Positions 2-31,779 of a stretch of DNA of 32,000 bases are shown piece after piece. Numbering within the stretch: the stretch's first letter is position 1; each line of letters opens with the position of its first letter. The stretch comes from an uncultured archaeon (GTDB taxonomy: Archaea > Asgardarchaeota > Jordiarchaeia > Jordiarchaeales > Jordiarchaeaceae): the NCBI GenBank assembly GCA_964510585.1, contig CAZECW010000090.1:4185-36184 (forward strand), written 5' to 3'. The notes beneath the pieces were generated by a model. The model saw only the letters and a list, made by a program, of their open reading frames with translations. It did no database searches and had not been told where the DNA came from. Both the position numbers and the translations under genes were made by a program.

Positions 2-624
2 AAACCAGAAGACTTGGAAGCAGTTGACTTCGGTCTAAGCAATGGGGAACCTGACTACTTTAAAAGGGGAGTCTTGGAATATACGTACTAGTAAACGAGA
101 CCGAATGCGGAAAAATTTTATGCTTCCTCCCAAACCATTACGTGCCAGAACATCGCCACCAATCGGTGGTAGTTATGCCCAAAGGCTCCAAAATTGAGAA
201 GGGCTACATCGATTTAAAGAAACTTGGTTTTAAGGGTTTAGACGAATTTGGGGAAGAGGCTGTCTATATGGTGCCAGAAAAAGAGAACACTTCCATTCCC
301 AAGCGGGGTATTCTCATCTCCGGCAAACAGGAATACTTCCACACCATAAAGGGCACCGGCTTAATGTTTTTACTAGGAAAACCCACTGACAAACCCACCT
401 ACCCTATACCCGAAGAGCATCGTCCCCACAACATCGCACTACATAAAGTCTTCCTAGAGCCAGGCGCTGGATTCCATCTGGACGCCAAAGCGCCACACAG
501 TGTAGTTGCAGGACCTGAGGGCCGAATAGTTATAGAGTTCTCTCTGAAAAGTAGGGATCCTCTAGACATATTCACGAATCCCAAAATAGACAGAATCACC
601 CACATAGAAGAATGCCCAAAATGA
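2..624 (+). CDS. D-lyxose/D-mannose ketol-isomerase family cupin (YdaE-like); runs off the window 5' edge and appears frameshifted between nt 59 and 91
   Basis: Frame 2 from nt 2 reads KPEDLEAVDFGLSNGEPDYF (DFGL motif). Frame 1 from nt 64 reads GSLGIYVLVNETECGKILCFLPNHYVPEHRH...GKQE...LEPGAGFHLDAKAPHSVVAGPEGRIVIEFS..SRDPLDIFTNP. This matches the YdaE-type pattern DYGLG..GLQLFVYVN..YCSKEL.LFPGQTCPEHRH..GKQE..LEPG..HWFQAG.EGAVV.E.S..S.D..DIFTDP. The ORF track captures only 142..624. Confidence 0.8.
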
Positions 625-625
625 A

Positions 626-3328
626 TTGAGCGAAGTGGTAACCGTGAAAAGGAGAAATGAATCCATTCTGGTTTCTCATACTCACTGGGATAGAGAATGG
701 TACAAACCTTTCCAAACTTTCCGAGGATATATGGTGGAAATGATTGACCGCCTGATAGACCTGATGGAGAAAAATCCTGACTATAAGCATTTTTTGCTAG
801 ACGGTCAATCCATTCTTCTTGAGGACTACTTTGAGGTACGGCCCGAAAATAAGGAACGTATACGTGCTCTCGTCAGTTCGGGCCGTTTAAGTGTTGGTCC
901 CTTTTATGTTCTACCAGACATGTTTTTGGTCTCCGCCGAATCTATTGTGCGGAACTTGCTTCTGGGCATAACGACTGCCGAAGAGTATGGAGGGGCTCAA
1001 AAAATAGGTTATCAGCCGGATTGCTTTGGACAAATTGCTCAAACTCCCCAAATAATGAAGGGGTTTGCCTTTAAAGGATTCGTTTTCTGGAGGGGTTTGG
1101 GGGATGAAATGGACTTTCTTCCAACAACTTTTCTTTGGGAAGCTCCCAGCGGAGACCGCATACTTACTCACCAGATTGCAATTGGCTACTTTAATGTGGG
1201 TGACCTTCCCCAAGATACAGATGCCGCCATTACACTAATTGAAAAAACAAAAAATATGCTCCAAGAAAGAAGCAACAGAAACTTCCACCTGTTTCTTAAT
1301 GGGCATGACCATGCGTTTCCCCAAGGGAACGTGCCTCAAATCATAAAGGCCTATAATGAGAAGCATCCCGATGAGCCAATAAAGTATGGAAGTTTGCAAG
1401 ATTTTTTCAACCAGCTTGAAGAAAACACGCATGACCTACCCGTTTACAAGGGAGAGTTCCGGGGGGCACGCATGTTTCCCGTTTTACCCGGGGTTCTATC
1501 CGCCCGCATATACTTAAAACAAGCAAATCACAGATGCCAAACAAAACTGGAGAACTATGCGGAGCCCTTCTCCGCCTGGGCATGGTTCCTGGGGGAAAAC
1601 TATGATAGGAGTTACCTTTGGCTAGCTTGGAAGTGGCTTCTTGAAAATCATCCCCACGACAGTATTTGCGGGTGTTCCATTGACCAAGTTCATAGGGAGA
1701 TGGAAACTCGTTTCGCTTGGAGTGAACAGATAGCTGATCTACTCACACTAAAAGCGATGGAACGTATAGCGTCAAAAGCAACAGTTTCTGGTGAGGGATT
1801 CCCCATAGCGGTCTTTAACCCCTCCCCCTGGAAGAGAACTGGAGTTGTGGAATTCCTCTCAGAGCCTTTTCCACCCTTCACCTTTAACAGTCAACAATTT
1901 ACCTTCAACCCCTCCCTCCTTAAGAGTTTGGATTTCAAGCCAGACCGCAACTTCTGTGTCGTAGACCATGAGGGAAGAAGTCTTCCCGTGGAGTTATTTG
2001 AAGAACCCGAGAACTATGCGTTCCGATTTTTCGAGAATATGACACGTTGTACTCTGAGGTTCCTTGCCACAGATGTTCCCGCCTGCGGATACAAAATACT
2101 ATACATAAAAGAGGGGAAAGCGGAGGATGTAAACTCATCTCTCAGAGTTAATGTCAAGGAGAGAATAATTGAGAATGAACATTTGAGAGTCAAGTTTAAC
2201 CCGAATGGCACAATGGACGTAACAGAACTATCAAGTGGTGTCACATTCGCCGGACTGCACATGTTTGAGGATGTGGGTGATAATGGTGACGAGTATAATT
2301 ACTCTAAACTCAAGGAAGACGAGATTATTACCAGCGAAAATCTTGATGCTGAAATTTCGTTTGTGGAGCACCCCACAAGAGTGGATGCAATAGTGAAGAT
2401 GGAGATGCTTCTCCCAAAAAGTTTAGAGGAGGGGAACCGTAATCGCCGCTCCCGCGAAAGGATACCTCTAAGAATAACTTCGATAATATCCCTCTTCCCT
2501 GGCTCCAGATTTGTTAACTGTAAGACAGAAATCGAAAACATTGTCAAGGACCACCGTCTAAGAGTGCTCTTCCCTACAGGCATAAAGTCTGATGTTGTCC
2601 ATGCTGATGGACACTTTGGAGTTGTTGAGAGAAGTCTGAAACTTCCAGATGACACCAACTGGATGGAGATACAAACCACAGCAAACCACCAAAACCTCTT
2701 CGTAGACATAAATAATGGAGAAAAGGGCTTAGCCATAGCAAACAAGGGACTGCCTGAATACGAAATTTATGGGGAAAACGAGAGAACCATAGCCTTAACT
2801 CTTGTACGTTCAGTAGGCTGGCTGTCAAGAAACATAGACCATAACAACCGCAAAATCTTCGGAGGCCCAGCAATACCAACACCAGAAGCCCAATGCCAGA
2901 GGCGCCTTACAGTAGAATATGCAGTAATACCCCACTCCGGAGACTGGGAGGAAGCAATGATTCCCAGAATAGCCAGAGAATTCGCCTATGATTTAAAGGC
3001 AGTTGAAGTCAAGAACCCCCTACACAAGTTGCCCGCCTCCACAAGCTTTCTAGAAGTTGAACCCCCATCAATAGTTCTCTCCGCGGTTAAAAAAGCCGAG
3101 AAGGAGGAGGCCCTAATCATTCGCATATACAACACTGGAAAAGAACAAAATGCGACAATTACCCTCAGTAAACCAGTGAAGTCAGCTAAAGTAACCAACC
3201 TCGCAGAGTATGAAATAAATATGGAGAATTCAGTTTCAATAAAAGATAACAGAATCACAATAGAAAACATTTCACCATCAAAAATTGTAACATTAAAAAT
3301 TCACACCGCAGACCAACAAACTCTTTAA
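626..3328 (+). CDS. GH38 alpha-mannosidase (MngB/mannosylglycerate hydrolase-like)
   Basis: SHTHWDREWY Zn-binding motif, YQPDCFGQ nucleophile motif, HPHDSICGCSID, RSVGWLSR and PTPEAQC motifs; 900 aa; TTG start 1 nt after the upstream stop. Confidence 0.93.
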   Translation: MSEVVTVKRRNESILVSHTHWDREWYKPFQTFRGYMVEMIDRLIDLMEKNPDYKHFLLDGQSILLEDYFEVRPENKERIRALVSSGRLSVGPFYVLPDMFLVSAESIVRNLLLGITTAEEYGGAQKIGYQPDCFGQIAQTPQIMKGFAFKGFVFWRGLGDEMDFLPTTFLWEAPSGDRILTHQIAIGYFNVGDLPQDTDAAITLIEKTKNMLQERSNRNFHLFLNGHDHAFPQGNVPQIIKAYNEKHPDEPIKYGSLQDFFNQLEENTHDLPVYKGEFRGARMFPVLPGVLSARIYLKQANHRCQTKLENYAEPFSAWAWFLGENYDRSYLWLAWKWLLENHPHDSICGCSIDQVHREMETRFAWSEQIADLLTLKAMERIASKATVSGEGFPIAVFNPSPWKRTGVVEFLSEPFPPFTFNSQQFTFNPSLLKSLDFKPDRNFCVVDHEGRSLPVELFEEPENYAFRFFENMTRCTLRFLATDVPACGYKILYIKEGKAEDVNSSLRVNVKERIIENEHLRVKFNPNGTMDVTELSSGVTFAGLHMFEDVGDNGDEYNYSKLKEDEIITSENLDAEISFVEHPTRVDAIVKMEMLLPKSLEEGNRNRRSRERIPLRITSIISLFPGSRFVNCKTEIENIVKDHRLRVLFPTGIKSDVVHADGHFGVVERSLKLPDDTNWMEIQTTANHQNLFVDINNGEKGLAIANKGLPEYEIYGENERTIALTLVRSVGWLSRNIDHNNRKIFGGPAIPTPEAQCQRRLTVEYAVIPHSGDWEEAMIPRIAREFAYDLKAVEVKNPLHKLPASTSFLEVEPPSIVLSAVKKAEKEEALIIRIYNTGKEQNATITLSKPVKSAKVTNLAEYEINMENSVSIKDNRITIENISPSKIVTLKIHTADQQTL

Positions 3329-3600: not shown

Positions 3601-4647
3601 TTAGTCGAGTTGTATGGGATATTTTCCATATTCTCTGGCTGCTTCCATGAAGGCTCTCAGATTTTCTAGAGGAGTATCTGGTGGTACCTCGCATCCTGTG
3701 GCGAGCATGTACATTCCACCTGGGGCTGCTTGACGTATGCACTCCTTAACAGCCTGTTTCACATCTTGTGGTGTGCCCTCCAGCATGACTTTGACTGGAT
3801 CTACGTTTCCCACAAGAACCACTCTGCCTGCAATCTTTTTCTTGGCTTCTGCAAGGTTGACTGGGGCGTCTATGCTAAGCATTGCGGGGCCCAGTTCGAC
3901 GAGCTTGTCTATGAGGTGGCTTACGTCGCCACATACATGTAACGCGCAGAATTTTCCCTCAGCTGCCCAGGTTTTGATTACCTTTTTTAGGGCGGGGGCT
4001 GCAAACTTGTCGAATTGTTTGGGTGAGAGTGTGCCTGCTACGGGGTCTCCGAGGTTTAGCCCCAATCTAACTTCGGTTTGTGCTCTTCCCTCCTCAATGG
4101 CGAAATCTGTGGTTATATCCAGCATTTCCTGAACGTAGTCTGGGTTCTGTACAAGGTCCTTGTAAAAATTTTCCGGGCCCCTCAGAGCTGTGAGAAGGGA
4201 GATGGGGCCTGCGACAAGTCCGCCTACGCCTGCAACTTTTCTCAACTCGTTGGTTACTATTTCGCCAGCTTTGAGAATGTTGGGCAGCCTGCCGTCTTTT
4301 CTTGGGTCAGGCATTCGTATATTTTTAACGTCTTTCTTCAAATCTTTTACCGGGAAGTCTACTACCTCTGGGAGCCTATCCTCATGGAATTTTATTTTGC
4401 AGCCAAAAGCTTCGGCTTCGACGAGGGTGTCACCTAGGACAAGTACTACGTCTGGGGTGTATAGTTTGTATGCCTTAATAATGGCGTGGGCCATTGTTTC
4501 GGGATCAGTTATAAACTCTTTTATGGGTACTCCTGCAAGTCTCGCGTTTCCCGCTCCCACGGAGGGGTAAGCTGGAACCCTATCTGGTTCCTGCCTGAGG
4601 AAAACTCTCTTCATTCTCTCTCTTACGGTTAACTCTTCACCAGACAT
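3601..4647 (-). CDS. MtaA/CmuA-type methylcobamide:thiol methyltransferase (URO-D superfamily)
   Basis: PDRVP, EAEAFG, GPISLL, LHVCG and ATGCEVPPDTPLENL motifs; the H-x-C...C Zn ligands are intact; GGAGG RBS; co-oriented with a corrinoid protein gene. Confidence 0.88.
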   Translation of the reverse strand: MSGEELTVRERMKRVFLRQEPDRVPAYPSVGAGNARLAGVPIKEFITDPETMAHAIIKAYKLYTPDVVLVLGDTLVEAEAFGCKIKFHEDRLPEVVDFPVKDLKKDVKNIRMPDPRKDGRLPNILKAGEIVTNELRKVAGVGGLVAGPISLLTALRGPENFYKDLVQNPDYVQEMLDITTDFAIEEGRAQTEVRLGLNLGDPVAGTLSPKQFDKFAAPALKKVIKTWAAEGKFCALHVCGDVSHLIDKLVELGPAMLSIDAPVNLAEAKKKIAGRVVLVGNVDPVKVMLEGTPQDVKQAVKECIRQAAPGGMYMLATGCEVPPDTPLENLRAFMEAAREYGKYPIQLD

Positions 4648-4682
4648 GATTTATTTAACCTCCAATACCTCGCGTCCTTTTT

Positions 4683-5321
4683 TTATCCTAAGAGTTCTTT
4701 AGCCTTTTGGACTGCTTCCCGCGCGTCTTTTCCATAGGCATCGGCGCCAATTTTTTCAGCGAAATCTTGTGAGGTGGCGGCGCCTCCTATTAGGATTTTA
4801 ACACTTTCTCTTAGTCCCTCGCTATCTAGAGCCTTTATGGTGTTAATCATTTCAGCCCTAGCTGACGAGATAATTCCGGACATGGCTAGAATGTCTGGTT
4901 TATGCTTTTTAACATTCTCTACGAAGGTTTCTGGGGGAACGTTTTCACCAATGTCAATTACCTCAAATCCAGCTGACTGTAACATTATTTTAACTATGTT
5001 TTTGCCTATGGTGTGTATATCTGTATAAGCGGTGCCCAGTAGCACCTTGCCGTGTCCGCTCGTCCTTTTCTCTTTAAGGTGCGGTTCCAGTATCTCTAAA
5101 GCTGCAGACATGGTTTCAGCCGACATTAAGACGTCAGAAATAAAGTATTCCTTATTACCAAACTTTTCCCCAACAACTTCTATGCCCTTCATTAGTCCTT
5201 TAGTTAGAGCATCGTAGGCATCTATTCCCTGTTCTAAAGCCTCTTTTGCTGCTTCCCTTGCAAGGTCCACGTTAGCCTCTATTACTGCGGTTGAAAGCTT
5301 TTCAAAGATCCTTTCGGCCAT
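4683..5321 (-). CDS. Corrinoid (cobalamin-binding) methyl-accepting protein, MtaC/MttC family
   Basis: B12-binding cap domain followed by GTAYTDIHTIGKNIV (DxHxxG), DIGENVPPE and KILIGGA; AGGAGG RBS. Confidence 0.93.
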   Translation of the reverse strand: MAERIFEKLSTAVIEANVDLAREAAKEALEQGIDAYDALTKGLMKGIEVVGEKFGNKEYFISDVLMSAETMSAALEILEPHLKEKRTSGHGKVLLGTAYTDIHTIGKNIVKIMLQSAGFEVIDIGENVPPETFVENVKKHKPDILAMSGIISSARAEMINTIKALDSEGLRESVKILIGGAATSQDFAEKIGADAYGKDAREAVQKAKELLG

Positions 5322-5454
5322 CTGCAGTCCTCCTTCTGACGCGAGAAGTTTTTAATAAATTGTATTTTTACCTCTACTAATCAGTATTATAAACTTTTGT
5401 CCAATAAATAGTATGAATCATAAAAACCAAAAAATAAATAATTTTTTAGAAGCT

Positions 5455-6852
5455 TTACAGAAGCCCCTCCATTTTGTACCATTCCTCAGCTGCTTTGGAC
5501 ATAACTTCCCTGTGGTCTATTAGTTCCCCGCCTGCGTCTTGGAGAATCCTTTGAAACATTATGTCTGCTATGTCGCGGTTTTCCTCTACAATGTTCTGGG
5601 TCTGGTTTGGATCCTTTCTCAAATCGTAGAGGTATTCTCTGCTCCTAGAATAATTCGCTATATACACCCATTCTTTGTCTCTTGTCCAGACATAACCGTT
5701 GAAGCCAGAGGTTGCGTAGCTTCGCGCCTTCCGCTCTCCGTCTATTAGAGTCCAGAGCTCTTCTCCGTCTAATGGTGTGGGAGGTTCTATTCCGAGGTAT
5801 GTTAAAATGGTGGGTACTATGTCGTGATTGTATACGAAGCCTGAAACGCGTTTACCACCTTTAAATCCTTGGGGGTGCCGAATGAAAAGCGGTATATCTA
5901 CTAATTCGGGATAGAGGCCTCTGGGAATCTTACCTATTAAGTTATGCTCACCCAACTGGTGCCCATGGTCAGATGTCAGCACCACTAGTGATTTATCCAG
6001 CAGTTCCAGCTCCCTCATTTTTTCTAAAAATTTCCCAAGCCAAGAATCAACCATTGTGACTTCGGCTGCATAGAGTGCCTTCATGTATCTCAACTCTTCG
6101 GGTGTGAGATAATCAACACTCGTTGAGTAGTTGGGTGTGATGACTTCTCTACCAGTGTAGGGTGGATGGTAAAGGTCTCGGTATTTTTGGGGCGGATCCC
6201 AGGGCTCGTGGGGGTCAAATGAATCAATAAAGAGGAAAAATTTCTCAACATCTTTGTTTTCTTCTATCCACTTGGCTGCGGCGCTAAATACTTGGGGCGC
6301 GAAGTAGTCCTCCTCTTTTCGGCGTTCTGAAATGTTTTTGAGATACTGTGGAAGTATTGTCATCATGTGGTCACATTTTCCGCTCTGTGGTATGTAGCGT
6401 TCCAATTGTTTGGGGTCAATTTTGGGTGCAGTTTTGTAAGGGTCTGCTTCCTGGCCTCTTATTAACTGCCACTGATGGTATCCTCGATGAAAATTCATGC
6501 TCGGCTTGAAGTAGTGATACGTGTCTGTTATGAAGGTGGTGGTGTAACCGTTTCTGCGTAGAATCTCGGCAATGGTGTTTTGCGAGTCTGGAATAGGTTG
6601 CCACCCGTAAGCTTGAACCATATCTCCCCTGCAGGGATGGTACTCCTTGAAGGGGAAGGTGCGGATTCCCGTATGTATTGATCTTCTGAAGGGAATTGTT
6701 GGTAGAGATTCGGGATGTGCGTCTTCAAATATGATGCTCTCTCTGGCTAGGGCATCTAGATTAGGTGTCTTTATCCAACTGTTTCCGTATATTCCTATGT
6801 GGTCTTTTCTCAGAGTGTCAAGGAGGATTACTACTACATTCAAGCCCTTCAC
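5455..6852 (-). CDS. Sulfatase-like alkaline-phosphatase-superfamily hydrolase with Thr at the formylglycine position
   Basis: ILLDTLRKDH, PTIPFRRSIHTG (T-x-P-x-R instead of C/S-x-P-x-R), DSFDPHEPWDPP, TSDHG and LYDLRKDPNQ motifs; GTG start. Confidence 0.85.
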   Translation of the reverse strand: MKGLNVVVILLDTLRKDHIGIYGNSWIKTPNLDALARESIIFEDAHPESLPTIPFRRSIHTGIRTFPFKEYHPCRGDMVQAYGWQPIPDSQNTIAEILRRNGYTTTFITDTYHYFKPSMNFHRGYHQWQLIRGQEADPYKTAPKIDPKQLERYIPQSGKCDHMMTILPQYLKNISERRKEEDYFAPQVFSAAAKWIEENKDVEKFFLFIDSFDPHEPWDPPQKYRDLYHPPYTGREVITPNYSTSVDYLTPEELRYMKALYAAEVTMVDSWLGKFLEKMRELELLDKSLVVLTSDHGHQLGEHNLIGKIPRGLYPELVDIPLFIRHPQGFKGGKRVSGFVYNHDIVPTILTYLGIEPPTPLDGEELWTLIDGERKARSYATSGFNGYVWTRDKEWVYIANYSRSREYLYDLRKDPNQTQNIVEENRDIADIMFQRILQDAGGELIDHREVMSKAAEEWYKMEGLL

Positions 6853-7003
6853 ACCAGCTTTTATAACTGGGAAAACAATTGGTTCTATCCAAATTCCAAT
6901 GATTAAACTAAGCCGCTAATTTCCGGAGCAATACTTTAATCTAATCTGTTTAAAAATATATTTTCATTAAAAACTAATCTTTCGACTCGAAAAGGTGATA
7001 ATT

Positions 7004-7633
7004 ATGACTGCTCAGCTCGTTGAAGCTATGGCTAACCTAGAGAGGAGCGCTGTACTGGATAATGTGGAAAAGGAAATTAAGAAGGGCACAGACCCCCTAA
7101 AAATAATAGAAAGCCTCTCTCAAGGATTAAAAATTGTGGGTGACCTTTACGATAAAAAGGAATATTTTCTAGCGGAGCTTATAACCGCCGGAGACATTTT
7201 TCAAAATGCTTTTCAAAAAATAAAACCCGTACTGGAGAAAAGGGGCCTTAAAACCCAAGTCCAAGGAAAAATAGTCATAGGAACAGTGCGCGGAGACCTA
7301 CACGACATTGGAAAAAACATCGTCATCACCATGCTTGTTTCATCTGGATTCTTCGTGGAAGACCTAGGAGTCGATGTACCTGCCGAAAAATTCATAGAAG
7401 CAGTAAAGAGAATAGACGCAAAAATTCTGGCCATGTCAGCCCTCCTCACAGTGGCACTAGACGCCGCAAAAGAAACAATTAAACTGCTAGAAAAAGAAAA
7501 CCTCAGAAACAAAGTAAAAGTCATCTGCGGAGGCGCCGCTTTCGACGAAAACACCGCCAAAAGAATCGGCGCCGACGCCTACGGAAAAGATCCCCTGGAC
7601 GCAGTAAAAATCTGCCAAAAACTCCTCCAGTAA
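7004..7633 (+). CDS. Second corrinoid protein, MtaC/MttC family
   Basis: GTVRGDLHDIGKNIV (DxHxxG), DLGVDVPAEKF and KVICGGA motifs. ATG 7004 is preferred over GTG 6995 because AGGTGA lies just upstream of it. Confidence 0.93.
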   Translation: MTAQLVEAMANLERSAVLDNVEKEIKKGTDPLKIIESLSQGLKIVGDLYDKKEYFLAELITAGDIFQNAFQKIKPVLEKRGLKTQVQGKIVIGTVRGDLHDIGKNIVITMLVSSGFFVEDLGVDVPAEKFIEAVKRIDAKILAMSALLTVALDAAKETIKLLEKENLRNKVKVICGGAAFDENTAKRIGADAYGKDPLDAVKICQKLLQ

Positions 7634-7814: not shown

Positions 7815-8984
7815 CTAAAATCCTCTCATAATAGGTTCATATTCCTTGAAAAGATACCGGGATATAACGTAGCGCTGAATCTGAGATGTGCCCTCATAGA
7901 TTTGGAAAAGCTTGGCATCCCTAAACAGTTTAGCAATACGGTAATTCTCCAAATAACCACGGCCACCGTAGACCTGTAGGGCGTCAGTGGCAATCTTCAT
8001 AGAGTCCTCAGAGCCGACAAGCTTGGCTACACTGGCTGCTGTGTTGGCCTCTCGGTCTCCCCTGTCCACGAGCCAAGCAGCCTTCCAAGTCAGTAGGCGC
8101 ATAGCTTCTATACGAGCATACATATCCGCCACCATTTGCTGAATTGCCTGAAAACTTGAGATCTTGTGCTCAAAAGCTTCCCTCTGCTTAGCGTAGTTGA
8201 TAGCATACTCCATGGCGGAACGAGCCAAGCCCGTTGCAAAGGCACCAATAGCTGGACGGGTACGCATAAATGTGGCCATAGCCAGCAGGAAACCAACACC
8301 CTCCTCACCCAGCCGGTTTTCAACAGGAACGCGAACATTTCTAAGAATTACCGCTGCAGTGTCAGATGCTCGATGCCCCAGTTTCTCAAGAGGTTTACCA
8401 GTAGACAATCCCTCACTCTCACGCGGAACAACAAAGGCACTTAAACCTTCATGGCGCTTTGTGCCCTTAAGCCGAGCAAAAATCACATAGTAACTGGCAA
8501 AATCACCGTTAGTTATCCAAAACTTGTTCCCATTCAAAACGTACTCGTCACCCTGACGCTCATAGGTGGCTTTAATACCTGCCACATCACTCCCCATTCC
8601 TGGTTCTGAAGTTGCGAAGGATATGAATTTGAGTTCCTTCGTGAGTGGCGTTAAAAATTTCCGCTTCTGTTCTTCTGTGCCGGCAAGAATTATAGGTTCC
8701 GCTCCCAAATCGTTGGCGTACATTGAGGTTGCTATTCCCGGGTCGGCTGCCGCAATCTCTTCAACTACAAGCACCGACTCAAAGGATCCATAGCCCTGTC
8801 CACCGTACTGTTTGGGTATTCCCAAATTCATAAGGCCGGCTTTGAAGGCCTTTTCATAAATGGGTAGTGGAAATTCCCCACTTTTATCATATTTTGATGA
8901 TACTGGAATTATTTCTTCCAATGCGAATTTGCGTGCCTTTTCGCGCAGAGCAATCTGCTCCTTAGATAGCTCAAAATCTACCAT
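7815..8984 (-). CDS. Acyl-CoA dehydrogenase
   Basis: FATSEPGMGSDV, LNGNKFWITNG, KLGHRASDT, YAKQREAF, QVYGGRGY, RDAK and IYEGTSQIQR motifs. Confidence 0.95.
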   Translation of the reverse strand: MVDFELSKEQIALREKARKFALEEIIPVSSKYDKSGEFPLPIYEKAFKAGLMNLGIPKQYGGQGYGSFESVLVVEEIAAADPGIATSMYANDLGAEPIILAGTEEQKRKFLTPLTKELKFISFATSEPGMGSDVAGIKATYERQGDEYVLNGNKFWITNGDFASYYVIFARLKGTKRHEGLSAFVVPRESEGLSTGKPLEKLGHRASDTAAVILRNVRVPVENRLGEEGVGFLLAMATFMRTRPAIGAFATGLARSAMEYAINYAKQREAFEHKISSFQAIQQMVADMYARIEAMRLLTWKAAWLVDRGDREANTAASVAKLVGSEDSMKIATDALQVYGGRGYLENYRIAKLFRDAKLFQIYEGTSQIQRYVISRYLFKEYEPIMRGF

Positions 8985-14266: not shown

Positions 14267-14308
14267 TTTCGTGTGTTACTTTTCTTTGCTAATCTAAAGG
14301 GATGCCCC

Positions 14309-15412
14309 ATGATTGAGGTTTTTGAGGATCTTGTAACTAACCGTCATGTTAATGCTTTGCGATGGAAAAATAGTGGTAGGAAGATTTTCGGCTACTTCTG
14401 TTCATATGCTCCTGAGGAAATTATTCATGCTGCGGGAATTATACCTGTGAGAGTGATGGGTGGTTCCGAAGCTATTACTCTGGCAGATGTTCACCTGCCG
14501 AGTTATGTGTGTTCTTTTTCTCGCAGTTGTTACGATTTGGGCCTGAAGGATGTTTACAATTATCTGGATGGTGTAGTGTTCCCCTATACTTGTGATACTA
14601 TGGTTTCGCTTTACAATATTTGGAGGAAGGATATTAAAACACCCTATGTGGGCTTCGTTGATCCTCTATGTGCAAAGAGGGAGACCTCAAGGAAATATTT
14701 TCGGGAGGAAATTGCTCGCTTTAGGTCGTCGCTTGAAAAATTTCTGGGGAGGGAGATTTCAGAGGATTGTCTCGAGAAGTCAATTGAAATTTATAATGAG
14801 AATAGGAAACTTTTGAAGAAAATTTATGAGCTTAGAAAAAATTCGATTCCCCCCATTTCTGGAGTGGAAGCCTTAAGCGTAGTTAGATCGAGTATGTTGG
14901 CTCCCAAGGAGGAGCACAGTCGCCTACTTGAAAACTTCCTGATTAAAATCTTAGAGAGGGAAGATGTGCCTGAGCCGGGGTTGAGGATACTTGTTTCTGG
15001 TAGTGTGATTTATGACTCTGAAATACTTAAAATGATTGAGGATGCTGGGGGGCTCATAGTAACCGATGATCTTTGCACTGGGACCCGTTACTTCTGGGAT
15101 ATGGTTAACCCTAAAACTTCTCCTCTGGTCGCCATTGCGGATCGGTACTATGAGAGGATTCCCTGCCCTTGTAATTATCCTCCCGAAAAACGTTTAGAAC
15201 ATATCATGAATCTTGTAAAGGACTTTAAAGTTGAGGCGGTCATCTTCGTCTTACAGAAGTTTTGTGATCCTCACTTATTCGACTATCCCTTTATGGAGGA
15301 TAGATTGAAGGAGGTTGAAATACCAACACTTCTCATTGAAACTGAACATGTGAACTCGCCCATAGGTCCCCTTAAAACAAGAATCGAAGCCTTTTTTGAA
15401 ACAATTCAATAA
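14309..15412 (+). CDS. 2-hydroxyacyl-CoA dehydratase beta-type subunit (HgdB/FldC/HadC family)
   Basis: GYFCSYAPEEIIHAAG, CSFSRS, PYTCDT, DDLCTGTRYF, KFCDPHLFDYP and TRIEAFFE motifs; ATG 14309 preferred as start. Confidence 0.88.
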   Translation: MIEVFEDLVTNRHVNALRWKNSGRKIFGYFCSYAPEEIIHAAGIIPVRVMGGSEAITLADVHLPSYVCSFSRSCYDLGLKDVYNYLDGVVFPYTCDTMVSLYNIWRKDIKTPYVGFVDPLCAKRETSRKYFREEIARFRSSLEKFLGREISEDCLEKSIEIYNENRKLLKKIYELRKNSIPPISGVEALSVVRSSMLAPKEEHSRLLENFLIKILEREDVPEPGLRILVSGSVIYDSEILKMIEDAGGLIVTDDLCTGTRYFWDMVNPKTSPLVAIADRYYERIPCPCNYPPEKRLEHIMNLVKDFKVEAVIFVLQKFCDPHLFDYPFMEDRLKEVEIPTLLIETEHVNSPIGPLKTRIEAFFETIQ

Positions 15413-15426
15413 TTGGTGGATTAAAA

Positions 15427-16626
15427 TTGACAGAAAGAGGAAAAAAGTCTCTGGAGACTTCAAAAGAAGTCTTTAAGTTAGCTTCCCAACACTACCTGGG
15501 TGCGCATGAAGCCAAAAGGATGGGTAAACCTGTAACTTGGATGACTGGATACGACCCTGTAGAACTACTCTACGCCATGGATATCGCGGTTGTGTATCCT
15601 GAAAATTATTCTGCGTTGTGCGCCGTCACCCAAGTGGCACCAAAATTTATTGAGAAATGTGAAAGTTTAGGGTATTCTCGTGATTTGTGTTCTTATGCTA
15701 GAAATACCATAGGCACGACATTTTCTCAGGATGCTCCCTTTGGCGGCCTTGCTCCTCCCGACTTTTTAGTTGTGGCAAGGAAATTTTGTAAGACCCATAT
15801 AAAGTGGTGGCAAGTACTAAGCCGCAGATTTAACTGCCCCCTCTTCATAATAGACGCCCCATACATTACCGGTAAAGTGGAAGACTACCACATAGACCAC
15901 TACTTAGCCCAGCTTGAAGAGTTAATAGCGTTTTTGGAGAAGCAGACTGGGAAAAAAATGGACTATGATAAACTCGCAGAAGTAGTTAAACTGTCTGATA
16001 GGGCGAGCGCTCTTTGGGACGAAATTATGGAAATGCGCAAAAATGTTCCCTGCCCTGTGGGAGCCGCTGATATTTTATCCTGCATGTTTGGCATAGTGAC
16101 TCTTCCCGGAACCCGTACAGCTGTAGAGTTCTATGAGAGATTGAGGGATGAGGTTAAGGAGAGGGTCAAGAACAAGATTGGCACCGTGCCCGTGGAGAGA
16201 TTCCGTCTAACCTGGGACAACATAGTCATGTGGTATAATGTGGGATTAACAAACTACTTCCAAAAGTATGGAGCAGTTTTTGTATTTGAAGGCTACACTA
16301 TGGTTTGGAGTGGACGCCTAGACCCTCAAAAACCATTAGAATCGCTGGCCAAGAAGTACCTAACACCCTTCATAGAGCTGAACAATAGGGCCTGGTCCAT
16401 GGTTGAGCTTTGTAAACAGTATAAGGTGGACGGAGCAGTAATGCACTCCAACAGAAGCTGCAAATTTTTATCACTACTACAATATGAACTAAAAGACATC
16501 TTGATGGAAGAACTTGGGATACCCTCACTAATACTAGAAGGAGACCACTGCGATGGAAGAGCCTACTCCGACGCCCAAATTAGGACCAGAATCGACGCCT
16601 TCATGGAACTATTAGAGAAGAGATAG
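15427..16626 (+). CDS. 2-hydroxyacyl-CoA dehydratase alpha-type subunit (HgdA/FldB/HadB family)
   Basis: YPENYSA, GYSRDLCSYAR, NRSCK, EGDHCD and TRIDAFME motifs. Confidence 0.88.
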   Translation: MTERGKKSLETSKEVFKLASQHYLGAHEAKRMGKPVTWMTGYDPVELLYAMDIAVVYPENYSALCAVTQVAPKFIEKCESLGYSRDLCSYARNTIGTTFSQDAPFGGLAPPDFLVVARKFCKTHIKWWQVLSRRFNCPLFIIDAPYITGKVEDYHIDHYLAQLEELIAFLEKQTGKKMDYDKLAEVVKLSDRASALWDEIMEMRKNVPCPVGAADILSCMFGIVTLPGTRTAVEFYERLRDEVKERVKNKIGTVPVERFRLTWDNIVMWYNVGLTNYFQKYGAVFVFEGYTMVWSGRLDPQKPLESLAKKYLTPFIELNNRAWSMVELCKQYKVDGAVMHSNRSCKFLSLLQYELKDILMEELGIPSLILEGDHCDGRAYSDAQIRTRIDAFMELLEKR

Positions 16627-16695
16627 ATTGATTCCTCCACTTATGCGTTGAGCCATCCGCTTACATTAACAATTGGCGATGTTGGGAGAGCCGTT

Positions 16696-17472
16696 ATGTA
16701 TGTTGCCGGAATAGATATTGGGGCGCTTACCGCAAAATCGGTCATTTTGAAAGACGGCAAAGTTTTGGCTTTCACTGTTATTCCCTCGGGGTCAGATAGC
16801 AAGGAAACTGCACAGAAAGTTATGGATGCCACCCTAAGTAAAGCCGGACTCTGCTTGAAAAATGTTGATTTTACGGTTTCCACAGGTTATGGTCGCATAA
16901 GTGTTCCCTTTGCAGACCTGCAGGTTACTGAGATTTCCTGCCACGCTAAAGGTGCTTATTCACTTTTTCCCACCGCAAAAACAGTGATTGATATTGGGGG
17001 ACAGGACAGTAAGGCCATCAAATTAGGCGAGAACGGTAAGGTGGTGGACTTTGCTATGAATGATAGATGCGCCGCTGGTACGGGTAGATTTCTGGAGGTT
17101 ATGGCTAAGGCTCTGGAGGTGAAATTAGAGGATATGGGAGACCTCTCTCTTCAATCTAAAAATAGGGCAAAGATCAGTAGCATATGCACAGTTTTTGCGG
17201 AGTCCGAAGTAATTTCACAAATCTCTAGGGGAACCCCCAAAGTGGACATAATAGCGGGGATACATGATGCCATTGCTAGCAGGGTCTTTGGAATGGCCAG
17301 CAGGGTAAAAATTGAGAAGGATTTGGTTATGACTGGGGGAGTAGCCAAAAATAAGGGCGTTATAAAGGCCCTGGAAGAGAAGGTGGGATTCAAAATTCTG
17401 GTGCCCGAAGAACCACAAATAGTGGGAGCCTTGGGTGCAGCTATAATAGCCCAAGAAAAAGCAGCAAAATAG
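16696..17472 (+). CDS. ATP-dependent activator of 2-hydroxyacyl-CoA dehydratase (HgdC/BcrAD family ASKHA ATPase)
   Basis: GIDIGALTAK, TGYGR, TEISCH, IDIGGQDSK, NDRCAAGTGRFLE, ISSICTVFAESE and TGGVAKN motifs; ATG 16696 preferred as start. Confidence 0.93.
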   Translation: MYVAGIDIGALTAKSVILKDGKVLAFTVIPSGSDSKETAQKVMDATLSKAGLCLKNVDFTVSTGYGRISVPFADLQVTEISCHAKGAYSLFPTAKTVIDIGGQDSKAIKLGENGKVVDFAMNDRCAAGTGRFLEVMAKALEVKLEDMGDLSLQSKNRAKISSICTVFAESEVISQISRGTPKVDIIAGIHDAIASRVFGMASRVKIEKDLVMTGGVAKNKGVIKALEEKVGFKILVPEEPQIVGALGAAIIAQEKAAK

Positions 17473-25939: not shown

Positions 25940-27991
25940 TTAGAGAATTGTGCTGATTGTGTCTGCGAGGTTTTCTTTTTCGCTTTGAATTATGTTTTCA
26001 ATGGTGTTTGCGGTTACTTCTTCTATTTTGTAGTATGCGCCTTGAGCGTTTTCGGCAATTATTTTCATGTAGCCCACGCTTGGTGCAAAAATGTTGGGAA
26101 CTTTTTCGGTGTCTATTGATATGAGGTGTATTCCTTTGTCGTAGAAGAGTTTGGAAAGGGCTTTGAGCTCCTTTTCAATGTTGGCGCCGGGGCTGAGTGG
26201 CACGTTGGCGTGGCCGTCTGAGATGACCACAACTATTGGCACCGTAGAGCCGATTTTCAGTTTCTGGTTTTCAATAACTCTCAATGCTTTGTAGAGCCCG
26301 GCGGCCAGTGGTGTTTTTCCAGTTGAGGACAGGTCTCTTAGGTACTTTTTTCCAAGGATGAGGTGCTTTGTGGGTGGGACTAGAACTTCTGCCTGTGTGG
26401 ACTTTAATATTATTATTCCCACGTAATCTCTTTTAGGATATGATGCTGTTAGGATGGAGTAGGCTGCGCCCTTGGCTGCCTCGATTCTCTCATGAATGTT
26501 CATGGAGCTACTGGAGTCCACAACCAGTACTATGAGGAAGGAGATTTTGGTTTTTCTCATTTTGAATCTTAGGTCTTGGTGGTCTACTTGAAAAGATTCT
26601 TGGCCCCCGTTGTTGTTTTGGGAGAGTCTTAGAGCCGCGGCTTTTAGTGTGGCGTCAAAGGCTACGTCATGAAACTGGTTTTGGAACAGGCGGGGTTTTA
26701 TGTAACGTCCCTTCGATGTTTCTGATGTGACTGGAAACCTCTTTCCGTAGCCTCTGGCAGCCCTCCTAAGGTGTGTAGCTATGTTCAGCATTTTGGTTAT
26801 GTTAATTGGCCTTCCAATTTCACCAATCTTATTTTTGGGAGCTTTGCCCGCAACTCCAACTAGGTCTTGGATGCTGCTTTGGGTGCTCCTCTTCTCTGTT
26901 TCTGTTTCTTTTTTTGTTTGTTTTTTCTGGGTGCTGGGTGGATTGGAATTTTCCTGCAGGTTTTGAAGGGCCTGTTCGAGTTCCTTTTCTTTAGATTCGA
27001 TTTCTTCGAAGGGCAGTCTTCTAAGCCTGTGGGGAAGAGCCAGCTTCGCGGCTTTTGTTATGTCCTCCATAGTAACTTCTGTCCTTCCTTCAAAGGCTGC
27101 CAAGGCTTTAGCAGTGCCCACAATTACAATGTCTGCTCTATGGGTATGGACATTCAAATCCAAGCACAACTTGGAAACAATGTCCAGAAGGTGATCACTG
27201 ATTTCCACTCTGTTTAAAAGTTCTCGGGCTCTGATAATTTTTTCCCGCAATTCTCTCTGCAGTGAACTGTATTTTTCCTGGAAGGCCTTGGGGTCTTTTT
27301 CAAACTCCTCTCTTCTTCTAACTATCTCCTTTCTCTGTTCTACATCCTTTAGGGCCTCTATTTGTACACATAATCCGAATCTGTCAGATATTTGAGGTCT
27401 TAGTTCTCCCTCTTCGGGATTCATGGTTCCTATAAGAATGAACTTTGAGGGGTGAGCAACAGAAACTCCTTCCCGTTCCACAATATTTAGACCCATAGCC
27501 GCAGAGTCCAAGAGCACATCTACCAGGTGATCCTCTAATAGGTTCACCTCGTCCACATATAGTATCCCCCGGTTTGCCTCCGCGAGGAGCCCCGGCTCTA
27601 GGCGGGCCCGCCCCTCTTTTAAGGCTGTCTCAACATTTAAGGAGCCAACCACCCTATCCTCGGTGGCGCTCAGCGGTAAGTCCACTACCTTCATTTTTCT
27701 TCTTTCCACTGGAAGTTCTTCTCCCCGCTCATACTTGTGCAAGCACTCGTCACACATTTCTGAAGTGTCTCTTGGATTACAGTTAAAGGGACATCCCTTT
27801 ACAAACTCTATTTCCGGCAACAAATCGGCGAGTGCTCGGGCAGCTGTTGATTTCCCAGTGCCTCTCTCTCCACGGAGGAGAACGCCGCCGATGGACGGCT
27901 TTATGGCCACAGAAATAAGAGCTGCTTTAAGGTTTTCCTGACCCACTATGGCCGTAAAGGGGTAGAACCATTTTCTTAAATGTCTTGTCAT
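25940..27991 (-). CDS. Fused ChlI/ChlD-type chelatase ATPase (AAA+ plus vWA)
   Basis: [56 protein letters not shown], linker, vWA MIDAS DSSSSM, GKTPLA and ISDG motifs. Confidence 0.92.
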
Positions 27992-28005
27992 TTTTTTATC
28001 CTTCC

Positions 28006-31000
28006 TTATTCTTCTAATTCTCCTTCTACTTCTAGGTATAATTGGCGGAGTTTATCTAGTTCGTCTTGGGTGGCTTGCCAGTATCCCCGTTGGTTTGCTT
28101 CTAGGAGTCTTCCCATCATTTCATGTAGTGCCCACTTATTATTCTCCTGCAATCTTTTTCTCATTTCCTCATTGAAAATGTAGTCTTCAGCCACTTTGTT
28201 CCAAATCCAGTTTTCCACTTTATTGGTTGTGGCTGCGAAGCCTAAAAGGTACTCTACGCGCTCTGCGATTTTTTTGCCTCCGTGATACTGATGTTTCAGC
28301 ATGCCGTCTATCCACTTGGGGTTTAACAGTCGGGTTCTCACACCTCTCTGGATGGCTTTATCCACGGTTTCTGTTTTTATTTGTTCTCTTGTGGTGTCTG
28401 AAATTAGCATCTCTGGTTTTTCGCCTCTTATGTCTTCAACTGCCTTTGAGAGTCCTCCAAAAAACTCATAGTAGTGGTCTAGGTCTGTGACTTCGTACTC
28501 GTGTGTGTCTCGAACTTGGGAAACTAGCTTCACGTTTGACAGGCTTTTCCGATAAATTTTGTCCGTCTGTTCACCGTGAATGTTTTCTGCATAGACATTA
28601 TTCATACTTGCGATGTATGCTTCAGCTACTTGGCTCTCAGACTCCCAGTTGGACGTTTCAATCAATCTGGTTAGTCGGGTTCCATACTCACCTGATCTGG
28701 GGCCAAAAATGCGTGCATTTGAGAGCCTTTTCACCAATTTTTCGTCCGAGAACTCTTTGATTAAGTCTCTGAAAAGCTCGCTGGAGTGTTTTTTAACATA
28801 GTTTTCACTCTCTTTTTCATTCACTGAGGCAACCATATTGAAAGCTTCGTCTAGTAGCTTCATAGTTTCTGGGAACAAGTCGCGAAAGAAGCCGCAAATG
28901 TTGACTACTACATCTACTCTTGGTCTTCCAAGCTCCTCAACAGGTATTAGTTTCAATTTCGGGAACCAGATACTCTTCTCTCTTACCACTTTGACGCCGA
29001 GATATCCCAGTATTTGTCCTACTGTTTCTCCTCTTGTCTTTACTGTTTCGAAACCCCAGAGTACAACCGCCACGCTTTCCGGATATTCTCCATATTTTTC
29101 ATAGTAGTGTTTCAAGGTCTTCTCCGCTATTTCAACGCCCCTCTGATATGCGGCATCGCTGGGTATGAGGCGGGGGTCAAACTGGTAAGTATTTCTTCCT
29201 GCTGGAAGAACTTCAGGAGTGCGGATGGGGTCGCCTCCCAGACTAGGAAGGACATATTTGCCATTTAACGCTTCAATGAGGCTGTTGATTTCGTCGCTTT
29301 TCTCTAGGTTGGAGGCTACTTGGAGACCGAAGGTAAGCGTCTTGTTAAGTTCCTTAGCCAGATTTCTGTTTACTTCGGAGGACTTTACTGCTTCCTCTAA
29401 AGAATTCAGTGAGAGCTGGATAACTTTTTTTGCTTTTTCTTCTATTTCAAATAGAATTCGACCGTAGCTTCTTCCGTTACAATTTTCGTTGGGGTGACTA
29501 ATAGCGTAATCATAATCTATTTCCATAGATTCACAGAGAATTCTATTTATTGATTTGATTTCTCCCCTATCATATCTCAAGATGAATGCAATAAACTCTA
29601 CCAATTCATTATCTTGATATTTTTCTCCGAGTACGTGGAGTCCCTTTGGAATTATTGATCTTTTCATTGCAAAAAGCTCATCATAAATCTCATCCACGGA
29701 TGTGGCGCTAATATTTGTCTCCTTTGCTTTTTCCAAGATTTGCGATTGAACCATTCTTGCCCGAATTGGGTCTTGGAGAACCGCTTCATAATACTCATTT
29801 ATGAGTTCTTCAAGTTCAGTGAAGTTTTCATAGAGTCCAGACTGGGTATATGGAGGAGACATGTGGTTAACCAGTGTAGCGTAGCTGCGTCTCTTGGCTA
29901 TCATAGCTTCTGAAGGATTAGTTATGTGGTAAACGTATAGATGAGGAATATTTCCAATCAGAAGGTCGGGGCAACACTCACTAGACATTCCCACTTCTTT
30001 TCCCTTCATAAATTCTAGGGTTCCATGTGTGCCTAAATGTATAATTGCATTTGCCTCGAATTCCTTCTCCAGCCACTTGTAGAATGCAATGTATTGATGA
30101 TGTGGGGGCATATTTTTATCATGATATGCTTTTTCGGGATTCTCATGAACACCACGGCTTGGTTGAAGCCCCACAAAAACATTTCCCAGCTTAATTCCGG
30201 GTATTAGCAGATTACCTTTATAACTCATAACACTTCCTGGTGGTTCCCCCCACTCTTGGACAACTTCCTTTCTTATATCCTCGCTTAGCTCTTTGAACCA
30301 TTCTTGATATTTTTCGCCGGTAACAATTATTGCGTTCTGAAAAGTGAGTTCCTTTGGACTCCACCTCCCAGAGTTAACTAACCCTTGGCTTAAGAACCCC
30401 TTAACTTCTACCTTTTCCAAGTTGTCCACGTTATACCCTTCCGCCTTCAATCTCTCAAGTACTTTTTCCAAGCTTTTGAAAACATCTAGATAAGCAGCGT
30501 TGCCTATGCTGTCTTCTCCAGGCGGATAATTATAAACAATGATGGCAATCTTCTTTTCAGAATTCTTCTTTCTCCTCAAATCCAGCCATTTAAGAACCCT
30601 ACTTGCAATTCTATCTATACGGTCATCAATTGCAACAGTTGATTTAACATCGGCTCTAAGAGTATCACTATAATCCAAGTTTTTGAGTCCAAGGGAGGGT
30701 ATGGGCTCTATGAGTCCATCAAGCTCTGGAAGTGTAACTGCTGCGATTACTTCCACCGGAGAGAAACCCTGAGTGGATTGTCTCCACTTTTCCACTTCTT
30801 GCATATACATAGGAGCAGCATCAAAAAAGGGAATATTCAATTTTTTCAACAAATCTAACGTTTGCTGCGGTGCTCCCCCCAACGGCCCTCCATTAATACG
30901 GAACCAGACAAAACTAACAGCAGCGTCAACAATTGGTTTTCCATTCATGAAAAAGTAATTCTGGAGAGCCTTCAAATTGTCTATTCCATCTGAAAACACT

Positions 31001-31779
31001 GGAATCACATTAACTATGGGTTCCAATCTTTTAATCAGCGCACTGGCGCCTGCAACCGAAGACTCAAAATGCATACCCCCATAGAATAAAACTCCCACCG
31101 TAGGCTTACTTGGATCGAATTTCTCCTTAAGATAGTCCTCCAAACTAGTATAGAAACGGTCTAGTCCCGGATGATAAATTCCAGTATCTGGAAACTCTGT
31201 TGGTGGCTCGGGCTCCACTTTTTGTCCGCCATACTCCTTGGCAACGAATAAAAGCAGGTTCTTCACATTCCTCTTTCCACTATACTTCCAGTAGTTCATC
31301 ACTCGGATCCAATTTTTAGCATGCTTTAAACTACCAAAGGGCAGAACTGTTCCCATTTTTTCAATCATGTTCTGAATACTTTGGATTTTTTTCCAGTCCA
31401 CGTATTCTTTGGAGGTGGATTTTTGTCTTGCAAACATTTTGGCTGGGGAGAAGGAACCCATTCGTGTAAGAGACATAACATCAGTGCTTCCACCCACGAG
31501 AGTAATCACAGTATTTTTCTCACCCGATAAAGCTTCTATAGCCAGATCAAATGCTCTACTTCTCCCTCTTAGGTCCAGAAGCACAATGTCTGATGTTCTT
31601 AGATCCTCCTTCAAAGCATTCTCATCGACCAATTCTTCACCGACTTCGTGAACATAGTAAAGTCGGGGTTCTATTATTTTGCCATATTCCTCCCTAATTT
31701 CTTTAAGAGCTTCCGCAAAAGATTTGGAAGCTGAAACATTGGCTAGAATTGTAATTTTGGTTGGCATAAATCCATCCAT
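28006..31779 (-). CDS. cobN: CobN/magnesium chelatase H-subunit family protein
   Basis: [74 protein letters not shown] and [12 protein letters not shown] motifs; 14 nt upstream of the ChlI/D gene. The alternative start is ATG 31767. The metal specificity is not determinable from sequence. Confidence 0.88.

Follow-up and report, generated by a model that had tools for sequence, protein, structure and literature searches.

The MtaA/URO-D family of corrinoid methyltransferases includes proteins acting as methyltransferase 2 (MT2; MtaA and MtbA), the bifunctional MtsA, and proteins acting as methyltransferase 1 (MT1; CmuA, MtoB, MtvB and CdmB) (PMC8630106, PMC10418091, PMC13222342), and the MtrH-like MtoA serves as MT2 to pterin (PMC8630106). 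CdmB was found to contain no zinc and to need none for catalysis, and cdmB-like genes have been reported from Asgardarchaeota (PMC13222342). In Freyarchaeia, MtrH, MttB-like and MtbC-like genes are present and synthesis of coenzyme M (CoM) is predicted (PMC11291895). Kountz and Balskus proposed that the MtaA-like proteins (Mlps) found outside the methanogens take part in methyl-sulfur or methyl-selenide metabolism (PMC10418091). The locus described here comes from an Asgard archaeon and combines an MtaA-like URO-D-family protein (P0002) and two corrinoid proteins with a sulfatase-fold hydrolase that carries threonine at the position of the catalytic residue (Thr-type). It was analysed within a stretch of 32,000 nucleotides (G000:C90:4185-36184, hereafter the window) of a 3.78 Mb genome that is 96% complete and whose closest named relatives, by protein, are Candidatus Freyarchaeum deiterrae and Candidatus Jordarchaeum.

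The locus is best read as three neighbouring units in one Asgard genus (Jordarchaeia/Freyarchaeia-like) and not as one cassette, a reading to which we assign a probability of about 0.6. In module A, P0002 would catalyse methyl transfer between a sulfur ligand, bound at its His-Cys-Cys zinc site, and the cobalt of corrinoid protein 1. Module B would be a cognate pair formed by a second URO-D-family protein (URO-D382) and corrinoid protein 2, split in this genus by three inserted genes. RamA-like activases encoded elsewhere would reduce Co(II) to Co(I) for both modules, and MtrH-like enzymes, also encoded elsewhere, would pass the methyl group to tetrahydromethanopterin and on into the Wood-Ljungdahl pathway. 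The sulfatase-like protein looks like an active cytoplasmic hydrolase belonging to the alkaline phosphatase superfamily; with Thr52 and not formylglycine as nucleophile, it would cleave a sulfate or phosphate ester in a compound derived from a sugar, and its working partner would be a mannosidase, not the corrinoid proteins.

Two methyltransferase modules around a hydrolase gene

On the minus strand, from 6852 to 3601, the gene for the 465-aa sulfatase-fold protein is followed by a 133-bp spacer, the gene for corrinoid protein 1 (212 aa), a 35-bp spacer and the gene for P0002 (348 aa); the gene for corrinoid protein 2 is divergent from the sulfatase-like gene (Table 1). A sequence-only reading of this DNA had proposed an MtaA-type enzyme with H-x-C...C, two DxHxxG corrinoid proteins and a co-oriented Thr-type sulfatase-like gene, all of which were found where it had placed them. 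Its further proposal, that these genes form a single cassette, found no support in the comparison with related genomes: orthologs or homologs of both modules occur without the sulfatase-like gene, module A behaves as an insertion or deletion, and the spacer behind the sulfatase-like gene looks like a terminator and a promoter.

Seven genus-level loci were compared. Module A (corrinoid protein 1 and P0002) is present in the window and in G056, G064 and L008, and is absent from G028, L007 and L001, the last being the complete Freyarchaeum deiterrae genome. Corrinoid protein 1 accompanies every P0002 ortholog in these loci. Where the module is absent, the sulfatase-like gene is followed directly by the gene for a glycoside hydrolase family 38 (GH38) alpha-mannosidase or by a small open reading frame (ORF) of 108-110 aa, and no remnants of the module are detectable. 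The small ORF is conserved in three relatives (L007:10510-10842, L008:12460-12786 and L130, ~2780-3100), with GH38 on one side and the sulfatase-like or MtaA-like gene on the other; it was detected neither in the window nor in L001.

The 133-bp spacer has a T-rich run directly 3' of the sulfatase-like stop codon, then a box resembling a B recognition element and TATA box (BRE/TATA-like; GGACAAA..TTTATAAT, with TTTATAAT at ~5386-5393) ~65 nt upstream of the corrinoid protein 1 start, and a Shine-Dalgarno sequence (GGAGG) 8 nt upstream of its ATG. All three elements are kept in four genomes, in one of which the sulfatase-like protein is merely 78% identical. This conservation agrees with separate transcription of module A, and the spacer, read as a putative terminator followed by a promoter, probably makes the module a unit of its own.

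The case for module B comes from other Asgard genomes. In two of them (G242 and G281), orthologs of URO-D382 (75% identity) and of corrinoid protein 2 (63-64%) lie 28-37 bp apart on one strand, and in 16 of 17 further Asgard loci homologs of URO-D382 (33-38% identity) abut a corrinoid gene. From this adjacency in 18 other Asgard loci we infer that URO-D382 and corrinoid protein 2 are a cognate pair; in the genus of the window the pair is split by three genes, encoding a protein of unassigned family, GH38 and the sulfatase-like protein. None of the 18 loci has glycan genes as neighbours of the pair, and none has a Thr-type homolog; a single weak sulfatase-family match (95 bits) lies three genes away in one of them (L250). 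Three sister-family genomes (92-95% complete) possess a URO-D382 ortholog, and a sulfatase-like homolog was not found in them with this query. One in-frame TAG was noticed in a URO-D382 ortholog of another genome (G070:C46:1667-2494) and one in an MtrH-like fragment of the window's genome (G000:C62:51646-51810); each may represent a break or recoding of the codon.

Both corrinoid proteins consist of a helical cap (PF02607) and a Rossmann B12 domain (PF02310) and contain DxHxxG, and both miss the TIGR02370 cut-off of 215.3 bits, scoring 194.3 and 174.8. The true start of corrinoid protein 2 is probably the ATG at 7004, giving 209 aa as in its relatives.

Table 1. Features of the locus and its flanks. 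Coordinates are window positions unless given with the contig (G000:C90).
Feature	Position	Strand	Evidence or remark
MtaA-like URO-D-family corrinoid methyltransferase P0002, 348 aa, module A	3601..4647	-	PF01208, E 3e-74
Corrinoid protein 1 (P0003), 212 aa, P0002 partner, 35 bp upstream of P0002	4683..5321	-	B12-binding_2 and B12-binding; DIHTIG
Spacer with T-run, GGACAAA..TTTATAAT box and GGAGG before corrinoid protein 1 ATG	5322..5454	-	sequence, kept in four genomes
Cytoplasmic Thr-type sulfatase-fold hydrolase (P0001), 465 aa, T52-I-P-F-R56	5455..6852	-	PF00884 Sulfatase, E 4e-41
Corrinoid protein 2 (P0004), module B, putative partner of upstream URO-D gene	6995..7633	+	B12-binding_2 and B12-binding; DLHDIG
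GH38 alpha-mannosidase	626..3328	+	four GH38 domains above Pfam cut-offs
Conserved protein, family unassigned, 160 aa (~237 aa in the gene models of relatives), between URO-D382 and GH38	142..624	+	
Acyl-CoA dehydrogenase (ACAD), convergent with corrinoid protein 2	7815..8984	-	three ACAD domains; syntenic in genus
Second URO-D gene, URO-D382 (382 aa, motif HxD..C), ends 137 bp before window start	G000:C90:2900-4048		
Two upstream proteins, 410 and 409 aa	G000:C90:172-1404 and 1552-2781		

The protein encoded at 142..624 has no match in Pfam or NCBIfam and is syntenic in all relatives of the genus. The 410- and 409-aa proteins upstream of URO-D382 are paralogs with 51% identity; both look like polytopic membrane proteins and are kept beside URO-D382 in the genus. 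They have no match in Pfam, NCBIfam or the PDB, and may be transporters of an undescribed family. A new MT1 role for them was considered and rejected on their polytopic membrane character. Two further gene groups lie downstream in the window. At 14273-17472, 5 kb from the ACAD gene beside corrinoid protein 2, two HGD-D subunits and a BcrAD/BadFG-type activator (2-hydroxyacyl-CoA dehydratase-type) are encoded. At 25940-31779, a CobN-family chelatase (1257 aa) and a ChlD/ChlI-like subunit with AAA and VWA domains (683 aa) probably form a cobaltochelatase, the presence of which fits heavy corrinoid use.

P0002 and the methyltransferase inventory of the genome

Genome-wide, 17 full-length URO-D-family ORFs and one 125-aa fragment were counted, together with 16 corrinoid-protein ORFs (eight directly adjacent to a URO-D gene), four full-length MtrH-like genes (contigs C29, C208, C99 and C71), three MttB-like genes, each beside a corrinoid gene, two RamA-like activases (C99 and C33), CdhC and ComA; MtaB and McrA were not found in this 96% complete genome. 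On contig C99, MttB-like, corrinoid, RamA-like and MtrH-like genes stand in a row. Domain searches of the large ORFs of the window returned no MtaB, MttB, MtmB or RamA domain, and neither an MT2 for pterin or CoM nor a RamA/RACE activase is encoded there, so the locus is not a complete one-cassette system. The sequence-only reading, which had the locus equipped with MT2 and lacking MT1 and RamA, is therefore right for the window and wrong for the genome, where MttB-, MtrH- and RamA-like genes and ComA are present and McrA and MtaB were not found. Nor is an apparent MT2 without MT1 an anomaly, because a URO-D enzyme beside a corrinoid gene is the normal MT1 layout.

P0002 has the URO-D fold over its full length (PF01208, residues 9-340), and its best solved relative is MtaA (4ay7; E 2.9e-32, about 115 bits). 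In the alignment, LHVCGD and ATGCEV of P0002 correspond to LHICGN and APGCGI in MtaA, so that H237, C239 and C319 fall on the HxC...C residues that we take to be the zinc ligands of that structure. The His-Cys-Cys triad is kept in two of the 17 full-length paralogs, P0002 and one other; the remainder have HxD..H, HxC..H, HxD..N or other variants at these positions. By score P0002 is the second most MtaA-like of the 17 (204.9 bits) and stays below the curated cut-offs (PRK06252, 204.9 versus 244 bits; TIGR01463, 194.8 versus 235.4; MtaA_Meth, 176.5 versus 400). Its match to CdmB is weak (E 8e-10) and covers the C-terminal part. P0002 orthologs (83-98% identity) are confined to the genus of the window, and the next homologs are 47% and 40% identical. 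The nearest non-orthologous homolog with readable context, that of 40% identity, lies in a URO-D/corrinoid/pterin-binding operon, where by its operon position the URO-D protein must be the MT1. The best MtaA match among the URO-D paralogs of the genome (G000:C39:2615-3661, NxC..C) reaches 267.9 bits against the cut-off of 244 for methylcobalamin:CoM methyltransferase and stands alone without a corrinoid gene, as is often the case for MT2 genes.

Because P0002 has the zinc triad, because the better MtaA match stands alone, and because the 40% identical homolog sits in an MT1 operon, we lean towards a role for P0002 on the substrate side, or a bifunctional one like that of MtsA, in which a methyl group would pass from a methyl-thioether-type donor to corrinoid protein 1. 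A purely MT2 function, from methyl-corrinoid to CoM, appears less likely and on the doubtful side. That a URO-D enzyme might itself act as MT1 had been suggested by the sequence-only reading; the suggestion is plausible in view of the 40% identical homolog and is not new, being precedented in the MtaA/CmuA/MtvB family.

The MT2 alternative, in its full form, has an MT1 encoded elsewhere (MttB-like or another URO-D protein) load corrinoid protein 1, from which P0002 would transfer the methyl group to CoM or another thiol. It would account for the fact that P0002 aligns with MtaA from end to end and shares its His-Cys-Cys ligands, and for the second-best MtaA/CmuA score among the paralogs, and it would be served by ComA and by the CoM synthesis predicted for Freyarchaeia (PMC11291895). 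Against it, methyl-CoM would have no obvious sink with McrA not found, P0002 scores under both NCBIfam cut-offs while the stand-alone paralog passes, and the 40% identical homolog is an MT1 by operon position. The three MttB-like genes, moreover, each have a corrinoid gene of their own, one of them with an adjoining MtrH as well. We regard this alternative as unlikely.

The other URO-D and corrinoid genes of the genome suggest what the family usually acts on. The 18 regions around them (L140-L157) make up about 5% of the genome and encode 10 AMP-binding (acyl/aryl-CoA ligase) proteins, against 28 matches (~27 genes) genome-wide, an about six-fold enrichment. They also carry enoyl-CoA hydratases, thiolases and HGD-D proteins, and there are no glycoside hydrolases among their 25 commonest neighbour families. 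These CoA-ligase and beta-oxidation neighbours suggest that the URO-D family of this genome usually acts on methylated carboxylic acids.

The Thr-type hydrolase family and its genomic context

The sulfatase-like gene is the sole sulfatase-family gene found in the genome. Its product has no signal peptide, the first strand starting at residue 5. Among solved structures, arylsulfatases and phosphonate monoester hydrolases come closest to it (E 1e-25 to 1e-24), and its motif P-T-I-P-F-R-R-S-I-H-T-G is spaced exactly like C/S-x-P-x-R-x4-T-G. D12, T52, P54, R56, H113, K116, H215 and K308 do not vary in a 30-sequence alignment of homologs, and D295 and H296 hardly vary; the S1 sulfatase fold and the active-site Lys and His residues are thus in place, and the formylglycine (S1) signature C/S-x-P/A-x-R is not, T52 taking the place of Cys or Ser throughout. 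The invariance of Thr52, P54 and R56 and the retention of the active-site set indicate a real enzyme family and not a decayed sulfatase. Threonine is unable to yield formylglycine (PMC5066984). Sulfatase-like chemistry in this family must therefore use the Thr alkoxide. A nucleophile of this kind is used by other enzymes of the alkaline phosphatase superfamily. A literature search for a described Thr-nucleophile sulfatase returned nothing beyond a SulfAtlas remark on Thr-bearing PF00884 members.

The family is large: the scored candidates included 4,156 matches, species-representative genomes contain at least 586 loci, and members occur in Rubrobacter, Chloroflexota, Armatimonadota, Poribacteria, Planctomycetota and Asgard archaea. 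The neighbourhoods of the 80 best loci (L012-L091; 1.0 Mb, many phyla) were surveyed, and corrinoid genes were searched for with tblastn and with a hidden Markov model (HMM) built from the 16 genome paralogs; none was found in any of the 80. Archaeal members are accompanied by heparinase II/III, GH2, GH5, GH94, MFS_2 sugar transporters, GFO/IDH/MocA and an HGSNAT-like acyltransferase, and Rubrobacter members by polysaccharide-synthesis genes, including a sulfotransferase. Helarchaeota-like contigs carry 58-63% identical homologs beside MFS transporters and acyl-CoA dehydrogenases, without corrinoid genes, and ACAD genes recur near Thr-type genes in other genomes. GH38-like genes occur near Thr-type homologs in three loci from three other phyla, and GH38 directly adjoins the sulfatase-like gene in relatives without module A. 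The GH38 mannosidase is likely to be the functional neighbour of the sulfatase-like gene.

These surveys bear on the proposal that the hydrolase unmasks a substrate for corrinoid-dependent demethylation. With no corrinoid gene in the 80 Thr-type loci, and with the sulfatase-like, corrinoid and URO-D genes found together only in the genus of the window, the proposed link shrinks to that one genus, and beyond it an undescribed C1 entry route is unsupported. The methyl-transfer genes belong to a known scheme and probably do not constitute a new carbon-entry pathway.

Several observations nevertheless weigh against three separate units. The order corrinoid protein 2, sulfatase-like protein, GH38 and URO-D382 is kept in seven of seven genus-level loci, whose sulfatase-like proteins are 78-95% identical; this counts for less because unrelated genes such as fwdGB are equally syntenic. 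That two independent methyltransferase modules should meet at one hydrolase pair is an odd coincidence. Several other modules of the genome likewise adjoin hydrolase genes (for an alpha/beta hydrolase and for amidohydrolases). Finally, three of the 80 Thr-type loci (from Clostridia, Armatimonadota and an unclassified bacterium) have a URO-D-family gene at most two genes away, in a sugar context.

These bacterial loci were followed further. A 7-kb contig of a Clostridia metagenome-assembled genome (L029:520-6641) carries, on the same strand, two URO-D genes, a LacI-type regulator, a third URO-D gene and the Thr-type sulfatase-like gene, and has no corrinoid gene. The Armatimonadota locus (L073) has the same URO-D subfamily with a lambda-carrageenase-like gene, and the third contig has GH76 and GH38-like genes; corrinoid genes are present in none of the three. 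Membership of the bacterial proteins in the subfamily of P0002 or URO-D382 was rejected: those of L029 and L073 match other paralogs best, and the URO-D protein of L065 matches P0002 weakly (25% identity over 216 residues). In a reverse scan of 80 metagenome loci of the bacterial subfamily from L029 and L073, four sulfatase-family matches were obtained, all low against the Thr-type profile, with a Cys-type signature in two of the four and the Thr signature in none; corrinoid genes were present in five loci. A conserved link between this subfamily and Thr-type genes was rejected on this result.

A single lineage-specific pathway for methylated glycans would bring these genes together, with the mannosidase and the Thr-type esterase freeing or unmasking an O-methylated (sulfated or phosphorylated) mannoside, modules B and/or A demethylating it without oxygen into the Wood-Ljungdahl pathway, and the upstream membrane proteins serving as importers. 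Such a pathway would explain why the block of membrane proteins, URO-D382, unassigned protein, GH38, sulfatase-like protein and corrinoid protein 2 is kept across the genus, why the hydrolases lie within a methyltransferase/corrinoid pair, and why a second module was inserted at the same spot, and it has an echo in the three bacterial loci where URO-D genes stand beside Thr-type and glycan genes, one with three URO-D genes under a LacI-type regulator. It is opposed by the missing corrinoid genes in all 80 Thr-type loci, by URO-D382-type pairs without glycan neighbours in 18 other Asgard loci, and by a sister family that has URO-D382 and in which the sulfatase-like gene was not detected. The reverse scan (four sulfatase-family matches in 80 loci, none with the Thr signature), the CoA ligases and beta-oxidation genes around the 18 other URO-D/corrinoid regions, with no glycoside hydrolase in the 25 commonest families, and a spacer that reads as terminator then promoter argue in the same direction, and we consider the pathway improbable. 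Marginally less probable still is the more specific proposal that the genus recruited the mannosidase and the Thr-type esterase into a corrinoid locus in order to use methylated, ester-decorated mannans or glycoprotein glycans. If true, it would amount to oxygen-free, B12-dependent O-demethylation of sugars, for which we know of no characterised enzyme; the unmasking proposal, if true, would likewise have given anaerobes a new way to feed methyl groups into the Wood-Ljungdahl pathway.

Under the reading of three neighbouring units, the locus documents the size of the URO-D methyltransferase family in a methanogenesis-free Asgard archaeon, and suggests that the methyl groups are likely to come from thioether or methoxy compounds and not from methylamines or methanol. 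The T-x-P-x-R sulfatase-fold family, widespread, cytoplasmic, conserved in its active site, linked to glycan genes and with no study found, is of more interest than the methyl-transfer genes.

Comparison with known systems

The hydrolase shares with S1 sulfatases and phosphonate monoester hydrolases (4uph, 2vqr, 3ed4) the fold, the anion-binding residues and the x-P-x-R-x4-T-G spacing. It differs from them in having Thr in place of the formylglycine-forming Cys or Ser, Thr13 in place of the second metal-binding Asp, and D295-H296 as its D-N pair.

As in the Mto, Mtv, Odm and Cdm systems, the genome contains URO-D, corrinoid, MtrH-like and RamA-like genes, and the URO-D gene adjoins its corrinoid gene; unlike in those systems, the MT2 and the activase lie outside the locus, and P0002, unlike CdmB, keeps a thiol-type zinc triad. 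Like the Mlps, P0002 is an MtaA relative in a non-methanogen and is linked to a corrinoid protein. The type 1 clusters of Mlps, however, mostly from Firmicutes, hold several Mlps and a Ram/RACE activase each (PMC10418091), whereas a single Mlp-like gene stands here with a single corrinoid gene and the activase is encoded elsewhere.

The closest parallels are MtsA-MtsB of Methanosarcina barkeri and MtaA (4ay7). P0002 departs from them in scoring below the NCBIfam cut-offs and in its host, an Asgard archaeon whose genome was searched for McrA with none found. It shares with them the URO-D/TIM-barrel fold with a His-x-Cys...Cys zinc site, the position next to a small DxHxxG corrinoid gene, and a unit that has no separate MtaB- or MttB-type gene.

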